Positions 1,410-60,034 of a DNA stretch of 64,000 bases are shown one piece after another. The DNA is from a virus. The notes below the pieces were generated by a model, which was not told the DNA's origin, did no database searches, and saw nothing but the letters and a program-made list of their open reading frames with translations. The translations under genes were made by a program, and so were the position numbers. How positions within the stretch are numbered: the first letter of the stretch is position 1; every line of letters begins with the position of its first letter. Where the stretch lies: IMG/VR virus record IMGVR_UViG_3300011193_000001; one strand, given 5' to 3'.

Positions 1410-1624
1410 GGCCGCGGCTCCAGGTCGCGCTCAGCCTTCCAAATGACCGGGTACGGCGCCGGGCCGAGCCGCAAGATGCTGACGAGCCGCATCGCGGGAT
1501 CGTGCGTCGGGCGCGCGGCCATCTTAGTCGCGAACGTCAGCGCCGCCGGCTCGCTCGCGAAGTCCGCAAAGGCGGACCATCCGTACGTCACGCGGAAGCC
1601 TGCGGGGCTATCGGTGGCGGGCAT
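1406..1624 (-). CDS. hypothetical protein, 72 aa
   Basis: ORF track; ends ..PRP* at conserved junction motif. Confidence 0.5.
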   Translation of the reverse strand: MPATDSPAGFRVTYGWSAFADFASEPAALTFATKMAARPTHDPAMRLVSILRLGPAPYPVIWKAERDLEPRP

Positions 1625-1886
1625 CTAGACCGCCGCCGACCTCTGGACGGAGCGCGCTCGCGAGGGATGCGAGAACGCCTTGGACATCGCGTCGGTTCGC
1701 GCGTCCTTCGTTGCTGACGCGGCCGAGTCGCTCTCCCTGTTCGCGGGCCATCTCGCCAACCAACTCCACGATGAGATCGTGGTCCTCCGTGCAGGCGTCC
1801 TTGCGGTAGACATCGACGGACGGCGCCTGCGGCGAGTCGGCGGGATCGCCCGTGATGATGAAGTAGAACTTTGCCGTGGCGGGCAT
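1608..1886 (-). CDS. hypothetical protein, 92 aa
   Basis: ORF track; plausible composition. Confidence 0.5.
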   Translation of the reverse strand: MPATAKFYFIITGDPADSPQAPSVDVYRKDACTEDHDLIVELVGEMAREQGERLGRVSNEGRANRRDVQGVLASLASALRPEVGGGLDARHR

Positions 1887-1943
1887 TGCGGGGTCCTCTC
1901 AGTCGATTGCGGCTACGCGGCGAAACCTAGCAGAACGGCGAGG

Positions 1944-2135
1944 CTAGTTCAACCACGCGCCATGCGGCTCATCCGCCGCAAGCCGCGACCGCAGCCCCGA
2001 CCAGCCCGCAAGGATCCGGCGCACACCCTCAGCCGCCGCCAAATCCCCGGCAGCCGCGCGACGCATCATTGCCGCGTGCGCGGCAACCTCCATCCGGATC
2101 ACCACCCGTGCCGGAGTCGCGGTCGACGGCTTCAC
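1944..2135 (-). CDS. hypothetical protein, 63 aa
   Basis: GTG at 2135 overlaps stop at 2132 (GTGA) and is preceded by GGAGG. Confidence 0.45.
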   Translation of the reverse strand: MKPSTATPARVVIRMEVAAHAAMMRRAAAGDLAAAEGVRRILAGWSGLRSRLAADEPHGAWLN

Positions 2136-2509
2136 GCCGCCTCCGGATCGAATGTCGGCAGCGCCGCCCACAACTCCAGCGCATCTATCGCCGCGGTCTC
2201 CTGCCGCGCCACCCTCGCCGCCGCCGCGCAGCCACGGCAGAACAGCAGCGGCTCCGGCAGCGACGCGTGCCCCGTTCCCGCCACATCATCCAAGCCGGCA
2301 CCGAACACCGGGGCTACCTCGCCGCCGCGCGGATCGCCGCCACAAACGCAGCACTCCGCATGCTGCGCGGCAATGGAGTCCGTGACACGACCGGACGCCC
2401 AGCACGGCCAGCACTTGCCGTCCTGATAGACGGGCCGCGCAGGCTTGCCGGGGTTGCACTCCGGGCCGTTGATGCAGCCACAGCCGATGATCCTGACGCT
2501 CATGCCCAT
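2132..2509 (-). CDS. Cys-rich hypothetical protein, 125 aa
   Basis: ORF track; many CxxC-type pairs. Confidence 0.5.
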   Translation of the reverse strand: MGMSVRIIGCGCINGPECNPGKPARPVYQDGKCWPCWASGRVTDSIAAQHAECCVCGGDPRGGEVAPVFGAGLDDVAGTGHASLPEPLLFCRGCAAAARVARQETAAIDALELWAALPTFDPEAA

Positions 2510-3765
2510 TGTCCCGTCTGGATGTGGCGCATCACGGCGAGCCCGACGAGATGGGCGACGGTGACGTGAACGCCGTCGCCGAGTGCGGACAATCGCTGTC
2601 GGTCCAGCCGCGCCCGCATTCGCTGCACCGTGGCTCCCCCATCATCCAGCCGACGAACGAGGGCTTCAGGCGCAGGCCCGTGGATGGCTTCCCATCGTTG
2701 GATTGCGGGTCTGTAGTCGCCCCAGTCGACTGCGACCCCCCCGGCTGATGCTGGATGGCCGTCGCCAATGTCACGGCCCGCTTCGCCCCACTTGGGCGCG
2801 TCCCGCCCTTCTCTCGACTCACGCGGCCGCCCGTTGCGTCGCTCGCCTCCGGAGTCGGGAGCATCCGCACGAGCGCGTTCAGCGGCGGCGAGTTGCGGTT
2901 TTCCTGCGACGCTCCCGCCACGTTCGAGCCATCCTGCCTCGTCGGGGTTGGGAGCAGGTTCAACATCGCTACCTGATCCTCCAGGCGTCCCCGCGCGTCG
3001 CCGTTGGCCACGTTCTCCGCATGTCGAATCAGGTGCTGCATCCCATCCGCCGCTCGCGGTGTGCCGAGCAACGGCGAACACCCGGTCACGGAGGTGCGGG
3101 GCGCCGACGGCCGCAGCGGGAACACAGTCCCATCGGATGTCACCAAACCCGAGCGCGGCCAAGTCCCCCACCACAGATCCCCAGAGGGAGCCAGGAGGCT
3201 CCATTGAGCCCGCAGCCATGCCCAGTATGTTCGCGACGTTTTCGATGAGTACGTAGCGGGGTCGAACTTCGCGAATGACCCTTCGCATCTCGTGCCACAG
3301 AACAGTTTCGGCGTGGTCGAAGCCGTTGCGTTTGCCGGCGGTGCTGGCGCCTTTGCAGGGGAAGCCGCCGGCGACGAGGTCGACCCCGCAAGCGCGAAAA
3401 TCTCGTTGGCGAACTGCGCACCGTGATCCACTGGCCTCGGCGTATGCGTCCGCTCGTGAGCCGTTGGCGTCGGAAGCAGCTTCACGAGCCCGTCCAGCGA
3501 GGGGCGCACCGCCGCTCCCGGCGACGGGCTCTGATTGTTCCCGTAAGGCGTAGCCGAAGGCGTCGGCAGCAAACGGACCTCGGACGGTTCGCACGTCGTC
3601 ATAGACAGGGACGCCTGGGAACCGGGCTCGCAGGAGCTCGCGGCGCTCGGGCACGGACTCGCACAACCAGGCGTGCTCGAACCCGGCGAGACTGAGGCCG
3701 CAGTCGAGCAGTCCGGCTCCGCTGAAGAGGGATCCGACCGTGGGCACATCAGCCACGCGACCCAA
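2500..3765 (-). CDS. DNA (cytosine-5)-methyltransferase, frame carrying the catalytic motifs (integrity doubtful)
   Basis: FSGAG (motif I), GFPCKG (IV), ENV (VI), APHLRDRVF (VIII), LSALGDGV (X) in order; regions between motifs are low-complexity. Confidence 0.7.
   Translation of the reverse strand: MGRVADVPTVGSLFSGAGLLDCGLSLAGFEHAWLCESVPERRELLRARFPGVPVYDDVRTVRGPFAADAFGYALREQSEPVAGSGGAPLAGRAREAASDANGSRADAYAEASGSRCAVRQRDFRACGVDLVAGGFPCKGASTAGKRNGFDHAETVLWHEMRRVIREVRPRYVLIENVANILGMAAGSMEPPGSLWGSVVGDLAALGFGDIRWDCVPAAAVGAPHLRDRVFAVARHTASGGWDAAPDSTCGERGQRRRAGTPGGSGSDVEPAPNPDEAGWLERGGSVAGKPQLAAAERARADAPDSGGERRNGRPRESREGRDAPKWGEAGRDIGDGHPASAGGVAVDWGDYRPAIQRWEAIHGPAPEALVRRLDDGGATVQRMRARLDRQRLSALGDGVHVTVAHLVGLAVMRHIQTGQWA
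2532..3749 (-). other. 405-aa +1-frame ORF over the methyltransferase gene, carrying LLPTP-type repeats typical of phage C5-MTase variable regions
   Basis: LLPTPSATPYGNNQ, LLPTPTAHE, LLPTPTRQDGSN, MLPTPEASDATGG, LKPSFVGWMMG..GWTD; higher hand-counted GC3 than frame A in these segments. Confidence 0.4.
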
Positions 3766-4039
3766 GGTCTAGCGTGAGTTGCGGTGCGTCTGGCCGCGGG
3801 CCGCCCTGCAACCGCTCACGGGCCGCGTCAAGCCTCCCGGCCGCCTCAACCTGCCCAGCGGTCGCCGGGGGCCGCTCGGGGCGCAGGAGAGCCGCGTGAC
3901 GGTCCTTCAGGGCTTCGGCCGCTGAGGCGATGCCGTTCGCCGCAGCGTGTTTGCCGCGGCGGTGAGCACCAATGCCGAGCACACGATCACCGAACTCGGC
4001 GTCGCGGTCCTCTTCGTGCCTCCAAGCAGGAACGGTCAC
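3749..4039 (-). CDS. hypothetical protein, 96 aa
   Basis: ORF track. Confidence 0.45.
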   Translation of the reverse strand: MTVPAWRHEEDRDAEFGDRVLGIGAHRRGKHAAANGIASAAEALKDRHAALLRPERPPATAGQVEAAGRLDAARERLQGGPRPDAPQLTLDLGSRG

Positions 4040-4166
4040 GACAGGACGCCGATGCTCACGTACACTTCGCTGGAACCGTCTTGGCTTCGGCTACGCCCTG
4101 ACTTGACGGCAGGCGGTCGGCCGCAGCCCCCGGACCCCGGTGTGTGCGCGGCCGGCCGTCGCTCCA

Positions 4167-4343
4167 TCATCGCCTGCCCTGCCGCATGTCGATGACGGCT
4201 CGCCACGCGCGATCACGCTTGATGATCGCCGCGGCCAGCCGCACACGCTGCCGCGGCGTCGGGTAGACCACGGCCCGTAGCCTCACTACCTCCGCACTGA
4301 GTTCATCGGCGCGGCGCTCCGCTGGCGTCCGGTCGAAGATCAT
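4167..4343 (-). CDS. hypothetical protein, 58 aa
   Basis: ATG at 4343 overlaps stop of small upstream ORF (ATGA); longer start at 4382 possible. Confidence 0.45.
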   Translation of the reverse strand: MIFDRTPAERRADELSAEVVRLRAVVYPTPRQRVRLAAAIIKRDRAWRAVIDMRQGRR

Positions 4344-4462
4344 GGCTGCGCTCGAATGGCCCGCGCGATCGATCGTGAGCACATCCAGATCAGGACATAG
4401 CCGCCGTCCCAGCCAAGCCGCCAGTCCACACCCTCATCGATGCACGGGAACGGTGGACTCAT
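4340..4462 (-). CDS. small ORF, 40 aa
   Basis: ATGA overlaps at both ends; below track cutoff. Confidence 0.3.
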   Translation of the reverse strand: MSPPFPCIDEGVDWRLGWDGGYVLIWMCSRSIARAIRAQP

Positions 4463-4701
4463 GCTGCCGGGCCGCCTTCGACATCATGGGTGGCGGCATT
4501 CATCTGCACGTAGGCCAGCCGCGCAACCTCTGCTAGCGCCGCCGCTGCCTCGTCGCTCAGCGGCACGCTCCCACTGACACTGAACGTCAGGCCGTAGCCT
4601 GCGTCTACATGCGTGCGGACTCGGCGGCCCGTGCCGTCGCACTCCGAGCAACCGCGGCCCTCACAGATCGAGCAGTCAGAAGATGAACCGTGGCGCCTCA
4701 C
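4459..4701 (-). CDS. DnaJ-type zinc-finger mini-protein
   Basis: CSICEGRGCSECDGTG (two CxxCxGxG units); GTGA overlap at 4698-4701. Confidence 0.55.
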   Translation of the reverse strand: MRRHGSSSDCSICEGRGCSECDGTGRRVRTHVDAGYGLTFSVSGSVPLSDEAAAALAEVARLAYVQMNAATHDVEGGPAA

Positions 4702-4832
4702 GGCCGCGCCTCGCCGTCGCGCGGCTCGTACACCGTCTGCCGGTCACCCTCGGCGGCCACCCGGCACAACGCGAACACGAGCAGCATGACCGCCGCATAC
4801 GCCACGACGATGAGGGCCGCGACGAAGATCAT
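4698..4832 (-). CDS. small membrane protein, 44 aa
   Basis: MIFVAALIVVAYAAVMLLVFAL hydrophobic segment; ATGA/GTGA coupling at both ends. Confidence 0.4.
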   Translation of the reverse strand: MIFVAALIVVAYAAVMLLVFALCRVAAEGDRQTVYEPRDGEARP

Positions 4833-27099: not shown

Positions 27100-28011
27100 T
27101 CATGTCGGCCACGGCGGCCGGGCGAACCCAACGATGCGGAAGTTGCCGACCGTCGAGCGCTGCCGGCGGAACACGCCGCCCCCGTTGGACTGCGAGCCGC
27201 CGTCGCCCGAGCTCGTGTTGCCCTCCACGGTCTGGTACGTGCCGCCGCCCATCCGCCGCTCGACGATGCCGACGTGGACAGCGGTCGGGCCACCCGGCGT
27301 GTCGAACAATGCAAGGTCGCCCGGCTTGCCGTCCTCGTGCCACGACCAGCCGCCGCGCCCCGCCTTGGCGTGCGCGACGATCGCCGGGGTGTAGCCGATC
27401 GCCCAGCCCTTCCCGTTCTCGCAGCCACCCGCGATGATCACCGCGTTGACAAAGCATCCGCACCACGGGACCGGGGAGCCGTAGCCGCAGATCTGCCACC
27501 ACTGCCGGATCTTCGGGCCGTCGTTCGAGCCGGCCGGGCTCTCCGTCGTCCCGACCTGCGCCGCCGCGAACCTGAGTGCCGACTGGACGCCCTTGCCGGT
27601 CGCGCCAGCCTCCTTCGCGAGCTTGTCGTACACGGCCGGGCCGTCCTTCAGCCGAGCGCGGCGAACCTTCGCGCGCTCGAGCTGCTCGTCGGTGCGCTCG
27701 TCGGGCTCGCGGATCATCTGCTGCAAGCCCTCCGTGCAGACACGGCGGCCCTTGTCCGTCCGAAGGTACGTGTCCGAGCGCGCGCCGAGCCAGTGCGACG
27801 CCTCGATCGCCGCCAGGGCAGCGGCCAGGGTGAACTTGTCGTGCGTCGGCGACGACACGTCGTCCGTTAGGCCGCGCGCTTTCAGCCGGGCGTGCGTCGC
27901 ACGGTTGAGGTTGCCGACGTCGCGGCCGAGCATCGGCTCGTCAACGACAACGAGCTCGCGGTGCACGGTCGGGTCCTCGGAGGGCCTGCGATTCATGTCG
28001 ACGGGGCTCAT
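27100..28011 (-). CDS. endolysin with C-terminal CHAP peptidase domain
   Basis: PWCGCFVN (Cys) .. HVGIVE (His) .. TVEGNTS pattern; sits next to the holin-like gene. Confidence 0.8.
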   Translation of the reverse strand: MSPVDMNRRPSEDPTVHRELVVVDEPMLGRDVGNLNRATHARLKARGLTDDVSSPTHDKFTLAAALAAIEASHWLGARSDTYLRTDKGRRVCTEGLQQMIREPDERTDEQLERAKVRRARLKDGPAVYDKLAKEAGATGKGVQSALRFAAAQVGTTESPAGSNDGPKIRQWWQICGYGSPVPWCGCFVNAVIIAGGCENGKGWAIGYTPAIVAHAKAGRGGWSWHEDGKPGDLALFDTPGGPTAVHVGIVERRMGGGTYQTVEGNTSSGDGGSQSNGGGVFRRQRSTVGNFRIVGFARPPWPT

Positions 28012-28241
28012 GGCCTCGCGTCCTTCGTGCTGTAGCCGGCGCCGAGCGCGGCGATGAGTACAACCGCGATAGCTCCGGCTGTCTCCTCGTCGACCCCGAG
28101 CACGTAGGCGATGACGATGCCGAGTGCGCCAGCGATGCCGGTCGCGGCAATCTTGCGTGTCGGCTTGGCCGACTCCTGCGATGCGAGCATGGTTGAGGGC
28201 ATGCGTCGAAAGCTAGCGTGCGGGGATGACAGACCGTCCAT
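28008..28241 (-). CDS. holin-like two-TM protein (start uncertain: 28241, 28202 or 28190)
   Basis: IAATGIAGALGIVIAYVLG and AIAVVLIAALGAG spans; immediately upstream of the lysin. Confidence 0.55.
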   Translation of the reverse strand: MDGLSSPHASFRRMPSTMLASQESAKPTRKIAATGIAGALGIVIAYVLGVDEETAGAIAVVLIAALGAGYSTKDARP

Positions 28242-39064: not shown

Positions 39065-41013
39065 CAGGTCGCGTACGCCGCGTCGGTCTGAAACTGCTTG
39101 GCCGTAGCAGTGGCGATCGGCTGCCCATCGATCGCCACAACGATGGCCGGCAGGTTACGCATGACGGCCGCGACGATACGCGCGATCGATCCCTCATCCA
39201 GGCCAGCGCCGCTCATCATGCCAGCCGATGTCTTCGCATCATGGACGTAGCCGCTGCGGCCCGGCGTGAAAATCTCCTGGCCCTGCTCGTTGACGAGGTA
39301 GCTCTTGCCTGCCGTGACGGGGCCTCCGCTGGCGCGCCGGCCGATGCTTGCCGCGGCACTCGTCGCCCGGTCCTGCGCGCCCTGATCAACGATGTGGCCG
39401 ATCGTGCCGACCGGGTCACCGGGCAGCACCTTGTTCAACGCGCCGCTCATCGCGTTCACGGCATCGATGACGCCGTTGATGACGCCGCGGACGAACCCGA
39501 CGATGCTGCCGAAGTTCCGTTTGATCGCGAGCGCCGCCAACCCGAACGGGCCGGTCAGGATCGCGAGCAGCAGCGGCCAATTGCCCTTGATCCACGAATA
39601 GCCGGTCTTCAGGGCGCCCCACACCGTGTTTACGACGTTACGGAACGCCGCGCTGCGCTTGTAGGCGATCACGAGCGCCGCGCCTACAGCGACGAGCGCG
39701 AGCACCACGAGGCCGATCGGGTTGGCTGTCATCGCCGCGTTCAGCGCCCACTGCGCGGCCGTCGCGACACCCTGCACAACCGCTGTCGCGATCATCGCCG
39801 TCTTGTACACCGCGAACGCCGCCGTCAACCCGCCAACCACGGAGATCAGGATCGTCGTCGTCGTCTTGTGCCGGTCGAACCATCCGACCAGATCCGACAC
39901 GGCGCCGACCACACCGTTGATCGCCGGCTCAAGGTTCGCCGAAAGGAACTGCATCACGCTCGTCGCGGCCGGCAGCAGCTTTGACCCCCACGTAATCGCA
40001 AGCGTTTCGACCGTCGACTTGAACGCCTCCAACGACCCCTTGAACCCCTTCGTCTGCGCCTCCGAAAGCTTCTGCGCGGACCCTGTTTTCGTGACGGCCT
40101 TGTGCATCTTGTCGTACGCCTTCGTGCCGCCCAGCAGCACGATGTTCGCCGCGCGGCTCGCGTCCGAACCGAACAGCGTTTCGATCGTCTGCGCCTGCTG
40201 CTCAGTCGTCAGCCCCTTCAGCGCCTTTCCGTACACCTGGATAGCTTTGCGGACCCCCACGAACTTCCCGCTCGAATCGAAGACATCGATCCCCAGCTTG
40301 CGCATCGTCTTGGACTGCTTCGTTGTCGTCGGGATGAGACTCGACATCATCTGCTTCAGCGACGTACCGGCATCCGACCCCGCGATCCCCTTGTTCGCCA
40401 TGACCCCCAGCAGCGTCGTCAAGTCCTCGATCGGGACGCCGAGCTTCGCCGCGCTCGCGCCGGCCTGCTGCATCCCCAACGCGATGTCCGTGATCTCAGC
40501 GGTCGACGCGTTCGACGCGCCCGCGAGAAGATCGGTCACCCGGGCAGCCTCCGTACCGCGCAAGCTGAACGTGTTCAGCGCGCGCGCCGTGATGATCGCG
40601 GCCCGCTCATTGTCGACCTGCGCGGCAGCAGAGAGTTGCAGCACGGACCGCGCGGAGTCCAGCGAATCGCGCACCGACAACCCGCCCTTTGCGAGCGCCG
40701 TCATCGCAATCGCCGCGTCAGCCGCCGACGTGCCCGGCAACTTCACGTCCGCGCCGAGACGCTTCGCGGCCTTGCCGACCTCATCCATCTGCTCTTTGTT
40801 CGCGCTTGAGACCGCCTGAAAGACGTTCAGCGACTTCTCGTAGTCGCCGGCCGCGTCGAGTGCCGCGATGCCGAGTGCTCCGAGCGCGCCGACAGCCGCG
40901 CCGCTCGCCATCGCTGCGCGGCGGCCGAACGATGACGCGCTGTTGCCGGTCTGTTGCAGGCCGCGCTGAACCTGACGCTGCCCGGCAAGGCGCAAGCGTA
41001 GGAGGATGTCCAC
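39064..41013 (-). CDS. tail tape measure protein
   Basis: 649 aa; Ala/Gly-rich helical; TP901-type core (..PGTSAADAAIAMTALAKGG..); C-terminal TM-like spans. Confidence 0.85.
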   Translation of the reverse strand: MDILLRLRLAGQRQVQRGLQQTGNSASSFGRRAAMASGAAVGALGALGIAALDAAGDYEKSLNVFQAVSSANKEQMDEVGKAAKRLGADVKLPGTSAADAAIAMTALAKGGLSVRDSLDSARSVLQLSAAAQVDNERAAIITARALNTFSLRGTEAARVTDLLAGASNASTAEITDIALGMQQAGASAAKLGVPIEDLTTLLGVMANKGIAGSDAGTSLKQMMSSLIPTTTKQSKTMRKLGIDVFDSSGKFVGVRKAIQVYGKALKGLTTEQQAQTIETLFGSDASRAANIVLLGGTKAYDKMHKAVTKTGSAQKLSEAQTKGFKGSLEAFKSTVETLAITWGSKLLPAATSVMQFLSANLEPAINGVVGAVSDLVGWFDRHKTTTTILISVVGGLTAAFAVYKTAMIATAVVQGVATAAQWALNAAMTANPIGLVVLALVAVGAALVIAYKRSAAFRNVVNTVWGALKTGYSWIKGNWPLLLAILTGPFGLAALAIKRNFGSIVGFVRGVINGVIDAVNAMSGALNKVLPGDPVGTIGHIVDQGAQDRATSAAASIGRRASGGPVTAGKSYLVNEQGQEIFTPGRSGYVHDAKTSAGMMSGAGLDEGSIARIVAAVMRNLPAIVVAIDGQPIATATAKQFQTDAAYAT

Positions 41014-41019
41014 TACGCC

Positions 41020-42154: not shown

Positions 42155-43615
42155 CTAGATCTCGTCGCTCGGGGCGACGGTCGTGATGAGCAGATCGATC
42201 GTCTTGACGCTGGTCGTCGGGCGCATCGCCAGGTTCGCCGCGAGGGACCTTGGCGCCGACCCGGCGCCGACGATGGCCGCGAATGCCTCGCCCGCGGTCG
42301 CTCCGAACAGAGCGTCCCTCGCGTACCACGCCGACCCGCGGCCGACAAGATCCTTCTGCACTTCGCTGTAGATGTGCAGGGCCGGGTCGATGTTCTTCTC
42401 CAGGTACTTCTGCATGTCGTCTTCGCACTCGTCGGCGACGGCGAGGACGACGCGGACACCGGCCGCGCCCGAGTACTGCTCCCACACGTCGGGGTCCGCG
42501 AGGGTGCGACTGCCAACCGCGTAGATGCGGCCTCGGTCGTTGCGGGTGACCGTCACGCCCGCGTCGTGCAGCGTGTCGCGATCCGCCTTGCTCCAGGTCT
42601 GGGTGACATCCGCGACGAACCGCATGACACCGAAGCTCTGCGCCGCGGGCTGCCCGGGGCCTGGCCGGTTCTCGCGGTCTGCGGCGGCCATGCGGCCCGC
42701 CTGCGCCCCCGACGGCGGCACCGTGACGAGTCCGGTGCCGGGGCCGGGGATCTTCTCCCACGGCGCGTACATCGCCCCGTAGCCCGCGCGGCTGCCCAGG
42801 GCGCGGAGCGTGGCCGCGGGCGCCGTGAGCGACGCGACCGTTGCCGTATCGATGGCGTCGAGCGCCGCGAACCGCCGGAACGACTCGGCGTGCTGGACGA
42901 GCGCGGCGTGCGCGGCCGGCGTCGTGATGCCCGGAAGGCTGACGGTGCCGGTCGGCGCGTCCCCATCGAAGATCGCAAGCTCGGCGAGCCACCCCGCCTG
43001 CGTCGTTGGGATGCTCGCGCGGTCGTCGGCGCCAGCAGACAGCGCGGTTTCGGCGAGGACCGCGAGCGGCCATACCCCGACGCCCGTTGCGACGCTGACG
43101 AGGCCCGTCGCCTCGAACGCATCCTCCAGGGCGGTGGCCGTGGTGAACGCTTCGCTGAAGAGGGTGGCGCCGTCCTGCTTGAACGTGACGGTCCGGGTTG
43201 AGCCGGCGCCGGTGAGCACTTCGACGGTGAGCTCGGTTGACCATGCGCCCGGATTCGCGTGCAGAACACCGTCCGCGTCCATGGCCGCGGCGGTGAGCGT
43301 CATCACGACGGCCGGCGCGGCGGATGACAGGGCGAGGGTGCCGCTCGTGGCGGCCGGTCCGACGAGTCGTTTCGCGAGCAACCGGCCCGCGCCGTTCGCC
43401 TCCCGGAAGTACGCCTCGGCGTTGCGGATGCCGTAGGACCCGGAGTCGACGTCGCCGTAGACGGCCTTGACCTTCGAGAGGCTGAGGCAGGTGGTGTAGA
43501 TGTCCGCGGGGCCGCGCTCGGCAACGAACGAGGCCATGAGCGCGCCGACATCTCCGGGCTGGGGGACTGCTTCGCCGCGGTCACCGATCGTGATGTTCAG
43601 CTCGGGCTCAGGCAT
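42155..43615 (-). CDS. tail sheath protein
   Basis: 486 aa; ..YAPWEKIPG..VPPSGAQAGRMAAAD.. pattern. Confidence 0.75.
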   Translation of the reverse strand: MPEPELNITIGDRGEAVPQPGDVGALMASFVAERGPADIYTTCLSLSKVKAVYGDVDSGSYGIRNAEAYFREANGAGRLLAKRLVGPAATSGTLALSSAAPAVVMTLTAAAMDADGVLHANPGAWSTELTVEVLTGAGSTRTVTFKQDGATLFSEAFTTATALEDAFEATGLVSVATGVGVWPLAVLAETALSAGADDRASIPTTQAGWLAELAIFDGDAPTGTVSLPGITTPAAHAALVQHAESFRRFAALDAIDTATVASLTAPAATLRALGSRAGYGAMYAPWEKIPGPGTGLVTVPPSGAQAGRMAAADRENRPGPGQPAAQSFGVMRFVADVTQTWSKADRDTLHDAGVTVTRNDRGRIYAVGSRTLADPDVWEQYSGAAGVRVVLAVADECEDDMQKYLEKNIDPALHIYSEVQKDLVGRGSAWYARDALFGATAGEAFAAIVGAGSAPRSLAANLAMRPTTSVKTIDLLITTVAPSDEI

Positions 43616-43787
43616 CGGGCTTGCCTTCCTGCTTGGCGGGCTTCAGCGGCAGGAGGTGCCCCGCGTCGATGAGGGCCGCGGTGTGCTCGGAGTCGGCGGC
43701 CTTCCCGGTGTCGCCGTGGGCGAGCATGCCGCCACCGTCGATGGCGATGGGGCCGCGGCTGCGGGACACGTTCTTGACCGCGATCAT
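43608..43787 (-). CDS. small ORF, 59 aa
   Basis: ATGA overlap at 43784-43787. Confidence 0.4.
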   Translation of the reverse strand: MIAVKNVSRSRGPIAIDGGGMLAHGDTGKAADSEHTAALIDAGHLLPLKPAKQEGKPDA

Positions 43788-44047
43788 GGCTGCGGCCAAC
43801 CGGTCGACGGGTTGCAGCTGGGGCAGTGCGCCGACACGAGGCCGCGCGCGTGGTCGAAGAAGATCGTCCGCACGCGGCTGCATGCGGGGCAGTTGAGCGA
43901 GATCGTCACGCGCGGCTCTCTTCGTCGGGGGTCACGTTCACACCGCGTAGCGTCCACCCCGATCGCCGCGCAAGGTCCATCGACTACCGCACTGGCCGCG
44001 CAGTACCGCGGATCGCCACGCTCAACAACGGGGCGCGTGTCGCTCAT
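43784..44047 (-). CDS. zinc-ribbon mini-protein, 87 aa
   Basis: CPACS..CPSC; the start shares CATG with the divergent plus-strand gene. Confidence 0.45.
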   Translation of the reverse strand: MSDTRPVVERGDPRYCAASAVVDGPCAAIGVDATRCERDPRRREPRVTISLNCPACSRVRTIFFDHARGLVSAHCPSCNPSTGWPQP

Positions 44048-44330
44048 GGCTCGTGAGTTCATGGGCGAGCAGATCCGCAAGACGAACGAAGCAGCCGAGG
44101 CCGAGGGCCGCCGGACGATGGCGATGGCCGCGCACTACTTCGCCTGCACGCGCGCGGATCGTCACCGGCTGGACCCTCGCCGCCTTGGCGACCGGTACGC
44201 CGAGGCGGCTTGCCGCCGTTCCGTGCAGCGCAGCAGGACGGCAGAGATCGCGCGGCTGAACACGCGACTGGCCAACTACGCGGATGCGGCTGGCGGCGCG
44301 GTCGTCTACAGCGCCGACGAGCGCGGCTAG
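44046..44330 (+). CDS. reverse-oriented hypothetical protein, 94 aa
   Basis: typical codon usage and high GC3; fills what would otherwise be a 266-nt gap. Confidence 0.55.
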   Translation: MAREFMGEQIRKTNEAAEAEGRRTMAMAAHYFACTRADRHRLDPRRLGDRYAEAACRRSVQRSRTAEIARLNTRLANYADAAGGAVVYSADERG

Positions 44331-54886: not shown

Positions 54887-57049
54887 CTACACCTCGCCCT
54901 CGAAGATCGCTACGGCCGTCCCGCGGCAACGCTCCCCGCCCTCACAGTCGAAGAACGCGCCGAGACTCGGGTAGTCCAGCATCGCGTCCTCGATGTCCTC
55001 GTACTCGCGGCCATCGACCGCCGAGCACGGGCCGCACGTAGCCACATCGAGGATCTCGGAGGCGATCACCCGCTCGGTTGGCGCTGACGCGATCGCTCCG
55101 AACCGGCCGCCACCGTTCGCCCGCGACGTCGCTCCCGCCGCAGCCTGTTCGGCCGCGGCGGGCGACAGCGACGACAGGAAGTCTTCGATCGCGCCCGCCT
55201 CGACGGTTGCCATGCGCGGCGCCGGGCGAAGCTTGCGCAGCAGGCCGCGGCCACCCGATGCCTGCACGGCCGCGGCCGGCGCCAGTGTCCGTGCGGCGGC
55301 CGCGCAAGCCTCCGTGATCTGCACCGCCATCCGCCGCTGAAGTTCGTTCGCTTCGACCGCGGCACGCGCCGCGTAGTCGACGTCGGGCGTGATCGTCACG
55401 CCTTGCCGCGCGGCCTCCCCGACGACCTGCGCGACACCCTGCGCCGCGGTAGCCGTCAGCATCGTGACGAGCGGCGCCGTGTCCATCGCGTTAGCGTGCG
55501 CGGCCAGTAACGGCCCGAGCGCACCGCCCAACGTGAGCGGGTCCACGGTTGGCATTGCTGCGACGATCGCGACCGCGGTTGCCGCGAGCTCGTCACGGTC
55601 GCGGAGCAGTACAGCGGCGAGATCATCGACGGCTGCGACATGCTCACGCTCGAGCTGCCCGAAGTCGGTTGCCGCCGCAAGCTCGACGGGGGTCGGGTCG
55701 CGGCGTAGCTCACGGCCGGCGACTGCGGCGAACGCTGTGCGGGCCGCACGCTGCCGGCGAGCGAGCGTCGTCTGCGCCGGGCCGCGGCGGCGCGCGGCGA
55801 TCGGCGCGGCGGGAGGAGGCTGGGCGGTGTCGTCCACGACCTCGGCGTCCACCACGTCATCCTCCGGCGCCTCGTCGGGCCGCCGCTTCCACACAAGCCG
55901 CGGCGCTGGCGCATCCTCACCACGGTTCCGGTCGACCCAAGGCTCGACGAGCTGCATCGTCATCGTGTCGCAGTACCAGTCCACGATCGTGTCGTGAAAC
56001 ATCGCGAGAAGATCATCGAACGTTGTGCCGAGCGCGCGGCTACCCGTCTCCGTCTGCCCGAGCTGTAGCAGCATCGTGAGCGTCGCGCGGGCAATGATCT
56101 CGTCCAGGTACTTCAGCATCCCAACGATGTCCGGCGTCGACCCGGTGACGCCCATCAGCATCACGGACTTCGCGATGTCCTCGTCGGTCTCCAGCACGAG
56201 GCAGGTGTCTTCGCCAGCCGCGTACCCGGCCAGCAGGCTCTCCAGCTTCTGCTTGACCGCGAGCGGCGAGCCTGGCGCGACCTTGCCGACAGGGACGCCC
56301 ATGCCGTTCTTCTCCGCGCTGAAGCCCATGACGCGAATCAGCCGGTCGCTCATCGACCACGCGCCCGTCAACGGCCTGAGCATCGACTTGCCGCGCGGAT
56401 CGCCCGGGCGGCCCTGCCATGTGAACGTGACGAGATGATCGGTCGGGATCTTGACCGGCGGGTTGCAACCCCACTGCACGACCCGAATCAGGTTGCCGTG
56501 GTTGTCGATCTCCCATGAGTTCGCGTCATCGATCGTCCACTGCGGCACCGGCGCAAGATCGGTCAGGCGCCAGTAGCCGGCGTCGTCCAGGCGGCCCGCC
56601 TGTTCGAACACGGCGTGCCCGTAGTCGAGTGCGTCAATCGCCCGGTCGAAGTGCCGGCGAGCGCTGAACCGCTTCGCTCGGCGGCCGGTGCGCTTCTCGT
56701 CGCTGCCCTCGATCGGTACGTCCAGATCGGCCGCGATCAGGTCCGTCGCGACGACATCGCAGTCCTGCGGGTCAAGCTCGATGATGTACCGGTGCGTCGG
56801 CAAACGGATCGCTTGGCGGCACGCGGCGACCTGCCAATGGTTGAGCATGTCCTCGACGGTCTCGGTGCGCTGCTTGCCGCGCCAGCGCTCCGACACTTCG
56901 CGTTCGGTCGGAAGGAAGTGGCTCCAGCCCGGCACCCCTGTTGATGGGGTGGAGAGCTCGGGGACGATGCTGCTGCGCGCGTCACCCGGTCCGGATGCGG
57001 CTTGCACTCGGGCGGCCGCGGCGGCAAGGTTGATCTGCCGCGTACTCAC
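54887..57049 (-). CDS. portal protein fused to a Mu-F/SPP1 gp7-like head morphogenesis domain
   Basis: GTGA overlap at 57046-57049; 720 aa; C-terminus ..TCGPCSAVDGREY..CEGGERCRG. Confidence 0.75.
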   Translation of the reverse strand: MSTRQINLAAAAARVQAASGPGDARSSIVPELSTPSTGVPGWSHFLPTEREVSERWRGKQRTETVEDMLNHWQVAACRQAIRLPTHRYIIELDPQDCDVVATDLIAADLDVPIEGSDEKRTGRRAKRFSARRHFDRAIDALDYGHAVFEQAGRLDDAGYWRLTDLAPVPQWTIDDANSWEIDNHGNLIRVVQWGCNPPVKIPTDHLVTFTWQGRPGDPRGKSMLRPLTGAWSMSDRLIRVMGFSAEKNGMGVPVGKVAPGSPLAVKQKLESLLAGYAAGEDTCLVLETDEDIAKSVMLMGVTGSTPDIVGMLKYLDEIIARATLTMLLQLGQTETGSRALGTTFDDLLAMFHDTIVDWYCDTMTMQLVEPWVDRNRGEDAPAPRLVWKRRPDEAPEDDVVDAEVVDDTAQPPPAAPIAARRRGPAQTTLARRQRAARTAFAAVAGRELRRDPTPVELAAATDFGQLEREHVAAVDDLAAVLLRDRDELAATAVAIVAAMPTVDPLTLGGALGPLLAAHANAMDTAPLVTMLTATAAQGVAQVVGEAARQGVTITPDVDYAARAAVEANELQRRMAVQITEACAAAARTLAPAAAVQASGGRGLLRKLRPAPRMATVEAGAIEDFLSSLSPAAAEQAAAGATSRANGGGRFGAIASAPTERVIASEILDVATCGPCSAVDGREYEDIEDAMLDYPSLGAFFDCEGGERCRGTAVAIFEGEV

Positions 57050-57345
57050 GATGATGGCGGCGCGTCGGGCACGGCGGCGAGGTCGCCCAGGTCCGGCGTG
57101 GTCGAGGCCATCGCGCAAAGCCACTGCTCCTCGAACTCAGCGAACGTCCCGATGTCGCGGCCGGCCTCGACCAGGATCTCGTGCAGCCGCACCATCGCGC
57201 TGCTCGCGTGATCCCACTGGACCATCGGGACCTGCTCTACGCGGCCGTCACAGTCCCGCTCGCCCTCATGCTCGAAGGCGAAGCAGACGTCGCGACAGCC
57301 GTGCAGGCCGTGGACGGGGCAGCGCGCGATGTTGACGACGGTCAC
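57046..57345 (-). CDS. hypothetical protein, 99 aa
   Basis: ORF track. Confidence 0.5.
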   Translation of the reverse strand: MTVVNIARCPVHGLHGCRDVCFAFEHEGERDCDGRVEQVPMVQWDHASSAMVRLHEILVEAGRDIGTFAEFEEQWLCAMASTTPDLGDLAAVPDAPPSS

Positions 57346-57725: not shown

Positions 57726-59417
57726 TCAGATGCAGCTCGGAGCGAACTTCATGTCGAGAATCCCGCTCATCACGCTCTTTGGCCGCGGCAACCCTTCCGG
57801 CTCAGGTTCTGGCCGCGGCATCGGGTTCGCCCAGGTAAGCGCTTGGGAGTGCGCGTCCACCTGATCGTCATTCGCGCCCTTGTCAAAGACGGTGTGCTCA
57901 TGGATCCATTCCTCGACCGTCGTCGGAACCAGCGCATGCCACTGCCCCGCCGCGTCCTCATAACCCGCCGGGCACGGGATCGACGGCGCCGCGGGCAAGA
58001 CCACGTTGCCGGACTCCGACAGCGGCGAGATCGCTGACGCCCGAGCTTTCTTGTCGCCCTTCGGAGGGACAGGGATCAGCCCGCCGATCTCGCTTTTCAT
58101 GGTGCTGATGACCGCCGGCCCGTTCGCTTTGTCCTCCACGAGCTTTGCGACAGCGCGCGGCTCAAACGCTGTCAGCGCCCGCAGGATGTGCAGCGTGTCC
58201 GCGAAGCTGAACCGGCCACGCACCTGCGCCATGAGGTAGCAGTCGGCGCCATGGAATCCCCAGACCTGTCCGACGACGTACGACGCGCCGGCGGACTTCG
58301 AGGCGAGCACCCCGAAGTGCATGTCCCATGACTGCACGACGCGATCGAACCCGAGCTCGAGGTAGCGGTCGAAGCCGGGTTCCCATCGCCGCGTGTACCA
58401 GTCGCGTTTGAACATGCCGCCGCCGGCCGGCGCGGGCTGCTGCTGGTACTGGCCGGCGTAGACGAACGCGTTGCCGCGATGCTCCGCGAGCGTCGCCTCA
58501 CTCAGCCGGACCGGCTCAAGCAGCTCGCCGGCCTCCGTGCGCGGATCGCCGTCGATGACGCGGCCAGACGGCAGCATCACCTTCGCCGGGTACGTGAACT
58601 GGTGGCTCGGGATGTACTCCGCCGGCAAGCACAGATGGTGCCAGCCCGCTTCCTGCGCTAGGAGGTAGCCGGTCAGGTCGTTCTCATGCAAGCGCTGATG
58701 GACGATGACCGCCGTTGCCTTGTCGTCGATGAACCGGCTTTTCATCGTGCCGTCCCACCATCGGTTCACGCGCTCACGATCAGCGTCGCTGTATGCCTGC
58801 TCGGGGTTGAGGGGGTCGTCGACGACGATGCGGTCCGCGTGATCGCCCGTCGCTTGGCCGCGCACGGCCGTCGCGAGCCGCATACCGCCGGCTGTCGTGT
58901 CGTAGCGGCCTTTCGCGTTCTGGTCAAGCGCGAGATGCCACCCCTGCCCGAGCAAGGCGAGGACGCCCTGGTAGCCGCGGCGCTGAAACAGGCGTCCCTC
59001 GGGCCGCCCACCGCGGCTAGCGATCAGGTCACGCATCTTGCGACTGTCGCGCAGCGCGAACTTCTCGCTGTAGGACGCGAACATCCAGCGCAGGTGCGGG
59101 CTGTTGATCCACTCCCATGCGGGCCAGCAGATCGCGGCCGTCACGCTCTTTGTGCTGTTCGGAGGCTGGTTGATCAGCAGCCGCGGGATCTCGCCTGCGC
59201 TGACGGCCATGAGGTGCTCGCAGACGAGGTCGATGTGCCATGCCTCGACGAACGGCCGCGCCGGCTCAAGCAGCGGCCATGCCTCCCGGATGAACACCCT
59301 GAGATCAGCCGCGCACCGTAGGGCTAGGTCGCGGTCGTCGCCGTCGTCGTCCGGTGGATCCCACCAGTCAGCTGCGATTGTTGCCGCAGCTGTCCATGCG
59401 GACGGGGCGAGAGTCAC
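57726..59417 (-). CDS. terminase large subunit
   Basis: 563 aa; ..INQPPNSTKS.. Walker-like, ..IVVDDPLNPEQA.., nuclease-like C-terminal half. Confidence 0.85.
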   Translation of the reverse strand: MTLAPSAWTAAATIAADWWDPPDDDGDDRDLALRCAADLRVFIREAWPLLEPARPFVEAWHIDLVCEHLMAVSAGEIPRLLINQPPNSTKSVTAAICWPAWEWINSPHLRWMFASYSEKFALRDSRKMRDLIASRGGRPEGRLFQRRGYQGVLALLGQGWHLALDQNAKGRYDTTAGGMRLATAVRGQATGDHADRIVVDDPLNPEQAYSDADRERVNRWWDGTMKSRFIDDKATAVIVHQRLHENDLTGYLLAQEAGWHHLCLPAEYIPSHQFTYPAKVMLPSGRVIDGDPRTEAGELLEPVRLSEATLAEHRGNAFVYAGQYQQQPAPAGGGMFKRDWYTRRWEPGFDRYLELGFDRVVQSWDMHFGVLASKSAGASYVVGQVWGFHGADCYLMAQVRGRFSFADTLHILRALTAFEPRAVAKLVEDKANGPAVISTMKSEIGGLIPVPPKGDKKARASAISPLSESGNVVLPAAPSIPCPAGYEDAAGQWHALVPTTVEEWIHEHTVFDKGANDDQVDAHSQALTWANPMPRPEPEPEGLPRPKSVMSGILDMKFAPSCI

Positions 59418-60034
59418 TAGCCGCGCGCCTGTCCTTCGCTGATCTCCTCGCCGTCAAGCGTCGCGGGCCGCGGCTCCTCGCCCTCGCGGACGAAGCGGCG
59501 TTGCGGCCGGTACACGCGGCCCAGATCCGTCGTTAGGTCCGTCGTGCCGCCATCACGCAATCGACTTCCGCGCAGGACGACGGCCGCGCGGCCGTCGATC
59601 GTGACCGTCGCTCGCTCGTCGACGTACGGGTCGCCGATGATCTCAACGGTGCGCCCGGCCGCTGTCCGGCCGACGAGCCATTGGACCGGAGCGGGCCTCG
59701 GCGCCCAGTCCTCGACCTTGACGACGCCGCGGTGCAGACTGCCGGTGCTCACGTACTCGGTCATCGCGGCTCCGTTCCGCTGCCGCCGCATACCTCGCAC
59801 GTCCCGGCACCATCGCAGCGGGTGCAGATCGGATCGTTCGCGCACGCGAAGTCTCTCGGCGGCCTCGCGGTCATCCTGCGCGGCTACCCATTCGACAGCA
59901 AGCCGCCACGGACAATCAGGCTCGTGAGGGTCGGCCTGGACGCCTACGGAGCCACAGAGCCCGCAGCCGTACCACGCGTCTTCGCAGATCGGGTCTGCCG
60001 CGGCCAGTGCCCGAACGATCTGCTCAGCAGTCAT
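59417..60034 (-). CDS. hypothetical protein, 205 aa (possibly two in-frame genes)
   Basis: ORF track; internal GGAACGGAG + ATG (MTEYVSTG..). Confidence 0.45.
   Translation of the reverse strand: MTAEQIVRALAAADPICEDAWYGCGLCGSVGVQADPHEPDCPWRLAVEWVAAQDDREAAERLRVRERSDLHPLRWCRDVRGMRRQRNGAAMTEYVSTGSLHRGVVKVEDWAPRPAPVQWLVGRTAAGRTVEIIGDPYVDERATVTIDGRAAVVLRGSRLRDGGTTDLTTDLGRVYRPQRRFVREGEEPRPATLDGEEISEGQARG

Follow-up and report, generated by a model that had tools for sequence, protein, structure and literature searches.

Organization of the locus

The DNA analyzed here is a stretch of 64,000 nucleotides from IMG/VR virus record IMGVR_UViG_3300011193_000001 (the window, in what follows). On its minus strand, between positions 3765 and 2500, it carries a gene of the cytosine-5 (C5) DNA methyltransferase type in which two long open reading frames (ORFs) cover the same nucleotides, as stated in a preliminary description made from the sequence. 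ORF A has 421 amino acids and ORF B, in frame A+1, has 405. A predicted protein starting at GTG 3747 (P0001, 415 amino acids) was 100% identical to ORF A. The overlap is approximately 1.2 kb, B spanning 405 of the 421 A codons. The parts of the gene referred to below, including the modules of the target-recognition domain (TRD), are the following.

3765..2500, minus: ORF A, 421 amino acids from TTG 3765, 415 from the likely start GTG 3747; putative catalytic (large-domain) subunit of a C5 DNA methyltransferase
3749..2532, minus: ORF B, 405 amino acids, frame A+1; putative target-recognition subunit, an array of TRD modules plus motif IX
3751..3745, minus: TGATGTG, holding the upstream stop TGA (3751-3749), the B start ATG (3749-3747) and the A start GTG (3747-3745)
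3712-3726, minus: A motif I, FSGAG (S-adenosylmethionine binding), invariant in family alignments
3480-3572 and 3381-3479, minus: B TRD modules 1 and 2 (LLPTPSATPYGNNQSPSPGAAVRPSLDGLVK; LLPTPTAHERTHTPRPVDHGAQFANEIFALAGS), in an insertion between A motifs III and IV
3349-3366, minus: A motif IV, GFPCKG (catalytic Cys), by motif check and family alignments
3235-3243, minus: A motif VI, ENV, by motif check and alignment with M.HhaI
3147..3168, minus: stretch constrained in both frames, with A GDLAALG (motif VII region) overlying B TWPRSG
3076-3102, minus: A motif VIII, APHLRDRVF, by motif check and alignment with M.HhaI
2958-3071, 2865-2957 and 2742-2864, minus: B TRD modules 3 to 5 (LLGTPRAADG...; LLPTPTRQDGSNVAGASQENRNSPPLNALVR; MLPTPEASDATGGRVSREKGG...)
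2736..2742, minus: G7 run, read as C7 on the plus strand, where the TRD array ends; specific to the present genome and not conserved
2689-2724, minus: A helix WGDYRPAIQRWE (WGDY helix), predicted helix at residues 343-356; it lies between the TRD and motif IX in single-chain relatives, where it is conserved
2598-2675, minus: B motif IX, LRLKPSFVGWMMGEP..GWTD (LRLKPSFVGWMMGEPRCSECGRGWTD), with a predicted local distance difference test (pLDDT) score of 80-89; the frame A by-product is LVRRLDDG
2568..2597, minus: stretch constrained in both frames, with A motif X (RQRLSALGDGV) overlying the B tail SDCPHSATAF
2569-2592, minus: putative A motif X, LSALGDGV (within RQRLSALGDGV); position and predicted helix fit motif X

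In the confidently predicted genes of the window (9097 codons) stops occurred at 0.0254 per codon in the +1 frame and at 0.0148 per codon in the +2 frame. At the +1 rate about 10 stops would be expected in B and none was seen, indicating that B is open far beyond chance, in agreement with the earlier remark that a +1 frame of this length is unusual. A sliding plot of third-position G+C showed a preference alternating between frames A and B along the gene, much like the shift first counted by hand. The flanking genes had ordinary codon-position G+C and ordinary off-frame stop counts, so that poor sequence quality alone does not account for the region. In a contig of the Logan assemblies (ERR4837118), window positions 1500-4747 (3.2 kb) were matched at 100% identity and without gaps.

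Frame A encodes the putative catalytic body of a C5-methyltransferase

Frame A carries motifs I to VIII and a putative motif X of C5-methyltransferases. The sequences FSGAG, GFPCKG, ENV, APHLRDRVF and LSALGDGV were all found at the places where they had been reported, motifs I, IV, VI and VIII being in canonical order on the single chain A; the translated N-terminal peptide is MPTVGSLFSGAGLLDCGLSLAGFEHAWLCESVPER, and motif IV lies within VDLVAGGFPCK. Profile searches, which had been recommended for both translations, gave significant matches for each. Frame A matched PF00145 (94.9 bits against a cut-off of 22, E 8e-27) and phrog_363 (E 6e-49); its score with TIGR00675 (66.7) was under the cut-off of 100.65. 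The A family profile aligned to residues 16-176 of M.HhaI (E 9e-24) and, by hhalign, to residues 1-191 of gp23 of Mycobacterium phage prophiT46-2 (E 5e-43). The latter is a single-chain protein with motifs I-VIII, LLPTP modules, WGxYxPAIRRWE, EWMMGxPxGW (motif IX) and GNGV (motif X), all in one frame.

The AlphaFold model of A, built with a 73-sequence alignment, had pLDDT values above 90 in three parts, residues 1-60, residues 121-230 and the C-terminal helix, and values below 50 at residues 71-113 and 238-338, which correspond to the B-coded segments. The top structural match of the model in Foldseek was M.HhaI. The TRD and motif IX are not on the core chain: between motif VIII and the WGDY helix A consists of filler with pLDDT below 50, reading as Gly/Arg/Ala/Asp filler over TRD modules 3-5, and over modules 1-2 it forms a low-confidence filler loop. 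The LLPTP modules are without exception in B. Two departures from the usual motifs are invariant across the family, PCK in place of PCQ in motif IV (3349-3366) and GDGV in place of GN(A/G/S)V in motif X (2569-2592). The Asn-to-Asp change in motif X is silent in frame B, indicating that B does not force GDGV.

Frame B encodes a putative array of target-recognition modules and motif IX

Frame B contains five LLPTP-type TRD modules, which upholds the earlier recognition of such units and raises their number from four, and the FVGWMMG..GWTD element reported in the same frame is present at 2598-2675. The N-terminus of B translates as MCPR.... Frame B matched phrog_1008 'DNA methyltransferase' (E 4e-21). 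The preliminary description would have been contradicted by an A chain aligned from end to end and a B without hits; what we found were variable regions of A that stayed unaligned and significant matches for B.

The region of modules 1-2 showed 57% identity to the in-frame TRD of prophiT46-2 gp23; the insertion holding these modules is absent from P0016 and P0022. The B family profile aligned to gp23 residues 236-356, which comprise its TRD modules and motif IX, with a probability of 97.5% (E 5e-12, hhalign), and in this alignment B motif IX was placed on gp23 RLAAAFSEWMMGWPIGWV. Since the A profile covers gp23 residues 1-191 and the B profile residues 236-356, A and B correspond to complementary halves of the single-chain protein, the large catalytic domain and the small recognition domain. 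No Pfam match was obtained for frame B or for the B-type proteins P0137, P0157, the +1 ORF of Gordonia phage CheeseTouch and gp44 of Arthrobacter phage Andrew, and frame B had no NCBIfam match. Neither the B profile nor Andrew gp44 matched a PDB sequence, even at E 1-10, and the identity of motif IX therefore rests on the hhalign alignment to gp23 and on the motif pattern. Modelled alone, B was mostly of low confidence (mean pLDDT 54.9), the exceptions being residues ~200-211 (~87) and the motif IX region (360-390).

The B genes of relatives carry from 1 to 7 modules drawn from recurring types. The type PYGNNQSPSPGAAVRPSLDGLV precedes motif IV in the window and in loci L004 and L005, follows motif VIII in L011, L028 and L032, and is in frame with the core in prophiT46-2. 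That a given type may occur ahead of motif IV or past motif VIII agrees with B being a chain of separate modules.

Within motif IX of B (residues 359-384) there is a CxxC insertion followed by C-x-H (EPRCSECGRGWTDSDCPHS), which resembles a small zinc knuckle. It was seen in a subset of the relatives only, the others having no such insertion (EWMLGMPEGWSDPDCPLS).

The two-frame layout is conserved among relatives

The DNA of relatives was taken from Logan, JGI and ENA contigs, IMG/VR viral contigs, metagenome-assembled genomes (MAGs) of GTDB (Solirubrobacterales, Thermoleophilia) and JGI metagenomes. Full-length homologues were found for A (P0002, 59% identity over 97% of the query) and for B (P0121, 61% identity, 97% coverage, annotated as a hypothetical protein). 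Gene callers take only one frame per locus, A or B depending on the locus. Profile searches of all loci yielded about 31 distinct complete genes in which intact A and B occupy frames f and f+1, respectively, and all partial loci were compatible with this layout. Identity among related loci was approximately 36-60%. A nucleotide search against deposited phages gave only short matches of about 73% identity and no close cultured relative.

Neither frame closes anywhere within the gene. In 24 of the 25 family genes first examined the open stretch of B covered more than 95% of A, with 4-17 stops in the +2 frame. When synonymous codons were permuted so that the protein and the codon usage of one frame were kept, 73 stops were expected in B and 8 observed; for A, 189 were expected and there were none.

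The starts of A and B are 2-13 nucleotides apart and directly follow the upstream stop in about 24 of 26 relatives. Ten loci share the arrangement NTGAATG, in which NTG is the start of A, ATG is that of B, and TGA is the stop that closes frame B upstream. Purine-rich sequences resembling Shine-Dalgarno sites lie a few bases upstream of the paired starts, and B always ends 8-45 nucleotides ahead of the A stop. The pairing of the starts right after an upstream stop suggests that a single initiation or re-initiation site feeds both frames.

Indel or deletion derivatives of the gene were found at L018, L020/L058, L023, L024 and L054. At L054 (517-1371) the core with motifs I-VIII is fused in frame to the B TRD and motif IX, motif X being in another frame; at L018 (401-1601) a +1 shift displaces both frames. 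The middle of the gene is lost at L020 and L023, and L024 has a partial N-terminal duplication.

Frame B of three diverged loci carries an insert resembling a homing endonuclease (phrog_5046 'HNH endonuclease', E 9e-24), at the same site, right after the A ENV motif. The insert has no stops, and frame A is open through it.

L007, ~3010-3470: homing-endonuclease-like insert
L008, ~2710-3180: homing-endonuclease-like insert
L043, ~330-800: homing-endonuclease-like insert

The three copies are 40-57% identical, and obvious intein termini were absent from them. A LAGLIDADG label considered for the L007 and L008 inserts was dropped because the Pfam match was weak (E 0.06-0.07), the solid match being that to phrog_5046.

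Selection acts in both frames

Codon-position diversity was determined in 25 genes. The core motifs, the WGDY..APxP stretch and motif X varied most at the third codon position of A, whereas the LLPTP modules, the insertion between motifs III and IV and FVGWMMG varied most at the third position of B. In 65 same-length pairs of TRD modules from different genomes, CheeseTouch included, differences at B codon positions 1, 2 and 3 numbered 548, 415 and 1015, and amino-acid identity was 0.76 in B versus 0.40 for the same DNA read in A. The sequences compared were saturated at synonymous sites. The segments of the best-motif path traced in the preliminary description thus do reflect the frame under selection in each part of the gene; the single stitched polypeptide that such a path could imply is probably not made, both frames being open and some nucleotides constrained in both.

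Such dual constraint was found at three places. Over B TWPRSG, the A sequence GDLAALG uses Ala GCC in 22 of 22, Gly GGG in 21 of 23 and Leu NTG in 22 of 23 cases, which preserves the B peptide. In A GPAPEPLVR the rare codons CCT (22/25) and CGT (21/23) are fixed, preserving B GLRL..F, and an A codon GAT is fixed (24/24) over the B motif IX region. In motif X, A RSRLSALGDGV uses TCC (20/20), CTC (25/25) and GTT (22/25), preserving B DPDCPxSAxEF. Synonymous-codon identity, defined as the share of codons that match where both sequences have the same 4- or 6-fold degenerate residue, in pairs below 65% identity, was 0.60-0.69 at A codons 150-200, 356-368 and 380-393 (0.64 at the GDLAALG/TWPRSG stretch and 0.67 where motif X covers the B tail) versus 0.35-0.47 in most of A. 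Since a ribosome cannot decode a nucleotide in two frames in one pass, this dual constraint argues for two products and not for one stitched chain.

Neighbouring genes and genome context

An upstream ORF of 96 amino acids (3749-4039, minus) ends in the TGA that overlaps the B ATG, and a downstream Cys-rich ORF of 125 amino acids (2132-2509, minus) starts 10 nucleotides before the A stop. At L008 a gene for an N4/N6 methyltransferase (PF01555; 3950-4909) lies directly downstream of the two-frame gene, and the B-type ORF of P0218 continues into the C-terminal region of such an enzyme.

The window has 68% G+C and appears to comprise the greater part of a myovirus-like phage genome, whose genes lie almost exclusively on the minus strand. 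Besides a protease gene, it contains the following.

57729-59453: terminase
54890-57136: portal
42158-43642: sheath
39067-41019: tape measure
27103-28212: endolysin

Relatives of the methyltransferase were found in MAGs of Solirubrobacterales and Thermoleophilia, a clade to which the host is therefore likely to belong.

Interpretation of the two-frame gene

The account that we favour, and consider reasonably probable, is that one stretch of DNA encodes two full-length overlapping proteins of the same strand which form a heterodimeric, probably multispecific C5-methyltransferase. Genuine dual coding was among the explanations put forward at the outset, and the evidence favours it. What was computed directly comprises the two ORFs, their complementary homology to a single-chain relative, the open frames kept in the family, purifying selection that is frame-specific and locally dual, and the paired starts. 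From the sequences we infer translation of both frames, association of A with B, multispecificity and an anti-restriction role, the multispecificity being suggested by the module architecture of the family.

According to this proposal, ribosomes leaving the upstream stop would start at either the B ATG or the A GTG within TGATGTG. The frame A product would be a large catalytic domain (motifs I-VIII, the WGDY helix and motif X) in which disordered filler loops replace the target-recognition region, and the frame B product would be a chain of five LLPTP-type recognition modules ending in motif IX. The two polypeptides would then associate, motif IX of B docking on A, and the resulting heterodimer may shield the phage DNA from host restriction.

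Several points weigh against this proposal. The expression of both proteins is deduced from stop depletion and from selection in the two frames. Catalytic competence of A is assumed, in the face of PCK in motif IV and GDGV in motif X, and in some relatives A must tolerate a filler loop of about 150 amino acids between motifs VI and VII. The low confidence of the model of B alone and its lack of a Pfam, NCBIfam or PDB sequence match also count here, as does the odd protein design of B, in which the ~50 N-terminal residues and residues ~120-150 are without amino-acid constraint.

The absence of a curated family match, the apparent disorder of B when modelled alone and the calling of B-type ORFs as stand-alone hypothetical proteins in many metagenomes would suit another possibility, namely that both frames are translated and B is an independent protein other than a methyltransferase, such as a TRD-derived DNA-binding or anti-defence factor, with A acting alone or being inactive. 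We regard this as unlikely, because B has kept motif IX, an element of the C5-methyltransferase small domain, beside its TRD-like modules and A has no folded TRD of its own; moreover, A and B are always encoded together and start together, and in relatives the same modules are found either in frame with the core or on a second subunit like that of M.AquI. That one frame alone is functional, the other being an evolutionary relic or open for a reason unrelated to protein, is improbable. Long shadow ORFs do arise in high-GC genomes, and the annotation of a single frame at each locus would agree with this idea; on the other hand, amino-acid purifying selection is detected in A (core) as well as in B (modules and motif IX) at saturated synonymous sites, and stops are depleted about 9-fold in B and completely in A. 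Artefact or decay, as a recently frameshifted pseudogene or as assembly indel errors, is hardly credible: although the alternation of frames superficially resembles a run of compensated indels, and real frameshift or deletion derivatives exist (L018, L020/L058, L023, L054), the same fully open layout recurs in about 31 distinct loci of 36-60% identity in JGI, ENA, Logan, IMG/VR and GTDB assemblies from many samples. The other genes of the window are normal in codon-position G+C and off-frame stop rates, and the Logan contig reproduces 3.2 kb exactly. The multiply frameshifted pseudogene and the indel errors entertained in the preliminary description are thereby refuted.

A single mosaic polypeptide could in principle be produced by a ribosome making four to six alternating frame shifts (+1, -1, +1, -1, ...) on the best-motif path, yielding a single-chain multispecific methyltransferase. 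Along the stitched path the motifs do come in the order seen in single-chain relatives such as prophiT46-2 gp23, selection in any one segment falls mainly on a single frame, and in the present genome a G GGG GGG heptamer in the B phase lies just before the WGDY segment. We nevertheless hold this model to be very improbable, because no homopolymer or X_XXY_YYZ slippery heptamer is conserved among relatives at any of the frame junctions, because the unused frame is free of stops over 120-250 codons in about 31 loci, which programmed shifts would not require, and because in several stretches the same nucleotides are under constraint in both frames. For example, A GPAPEP overlaps B GLRLNP, so that a stitched chain could contain only one of them; a series of four to six shifts would in addition be expected to leave very little full-length product. 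The G7 run at 2736-2742, to which one switch point had been assigned, does exist, and so does a GGGTTTG heptamer; both were rejected as switch points as neither is conserved in relatives, and slippage-dependent expression at the G4 or G7 run is unsupported. A further idea, to which we give very little credence, is a combinatorial system in which frame switching is tolerated or exploited to re-partition catalytic and recognition modules and so to alter methylation specificities. As neither frame has stops, any ribosomal or mutational +/-1 shift would give a readable A/B chimera, and L054 and L018 are natural indel derivatives showing that A/B swaps occur in evolution. If true, this would be a frameshift-robust, diversity-generating gene architecture.

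Significance of the dual-coding proposal

If both products of the proposed heterodimer are confirmed, the gene would be an unusually long same-strand dual-coding region of a phage, about 1.2 kb or 400 codons, conserved across a family; we know of no longer phage example of this kind. The catalytic and recognition halves of one ancestral enzyme would be written on the same nucleotides in different frames. The family would offer a natural model for the partition of constraint between overlapping genes, with single-frame and dual-constrained segments in one gene and with single-chain and sequentially split relatives as controls. Hundreds of metagenomic 'hypothetical proteins' of the B type and 'methyltransferases' of the A type would be halves of the same enzyme. 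The cultured phage CheeseTouch appears to lack annotation of its recognition subunit, probably a gene overlooked in the annotation. A detachable TRD-array subunit, if real, could serve the engineering of methyltransferase specificity.

Comparison with known systems

The overlap of phage genes whose products cooperate is exemplified by lambda Rz/Rz1, where a +1-frame gene lies wholly inside another. That overlap is of a few hundred nucleotides and the embedded gene is short, whereas here the overlap is about 1.2 kb and the products would be halves of one ancestral enzyme.

Among experimentally characterized C5-methyltransferases is M.EcoHK31I of E. coli HK31 (Lee, Kam & Shaw 1995, as summarized in PMC2836561 and PMC3404938). 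Its beta chain, which has motif IX, is encoded wholly in another frame inside the alpha gene; alpha has motifs I-VIII and X together with the TRD, and activity requires both chains. The likeness to the present gene lies in a two-polypeptide C5-methyltransferase whose second chain is in a different frame inside the first gene, the association of the chains being in our case a prediction. The TRD of M.EcoHK31I is on alpha, whereas here all five TRD modules and motif IX are on the alternate frame. Its beta chain is shorter and nested, with its own internal start, whereas B spans nearly the whole gene and starts beside A. The constraint in the two-frame family is moreover an interleaved mosaic. 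The comparison draws on published descriptions of M.EcoHK31I.

In M.AquI the split is sequential, motifs I-VIII being followed by IX-X on the second chain (PMC3404938). Similar splits with the same module family occur in Arthrobacter phage Andrew (gp43/gp44), ArV1 (067a/067b) and Gordonia phage Upyo (gp54/gp53), which resemble the present gene in that the core ORF is overlapped at its end by a TRD-bearing part read in a different frame; Andrew gp44 is +1 relative to gp43, with an overlap of 239 nucleotides, and carries LLPTP modules. In the M.AquI type, motifs I-VIII are on alpha, and the TRD, IX and X are on beta, which has an internal start and a short overlap with alpha. In the present gene the overlap is complete, and A retains motif X and the WGDY helix.

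The small domain of M.HhaI-type enzymes makes all of the sequence-specific DNA contacts (PMC3404938). The methyltransferases of Bacillus phages SPR, phi3T and H2 and M.phiBssHII, the TRDs of which lie at separated locations according to a title cited in PMC8936443, are similar to the proposed enzyme in combining one catalytic core with several tandem target-recognizing domains. They differ in being single polypeptides encoded in one frame.

Further counterparts are prophiT46-2 gp23 and gp88 of Gordonia phage CheeseTouch, which share with the present family the same core, the module type LLPTPxATxYGxNQSPSPGxAVRP, the WGxYxPAIRRWE helix and the EWMMG motif IX. The gp23 locus (L002) has an extra LLPTPRAAADRTS... 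module in a +1-frame ORF (1505-2014) just after motif VIII, where the annotated frame is filler. CheeseTouch shows an intermediate layout: motif IX is in the annotated frame of gp88, which is filler through the variable region, and the TRD modules are in an unannotated +1 ORF (L001 1213-2013; PP208929.1 ~43477-44277). This ORF is open for 267 codons from the gene start, carries LLPTP modules (predicted peptide ...LPTPTATPYGSNQSPSPGAAVRPSLDGLVR) and shows frame-specific selection.

A literature search on LLPTP and overlapping-frame phage methyltransferases found no description of such an architecture. What sets the two-frame family apart from the systems compared above is the complete overlap, the joint starts of the two ORFs, the location of the whole TRD array and motif IX on the alternate frame, and the alternation of constraint along the gene.

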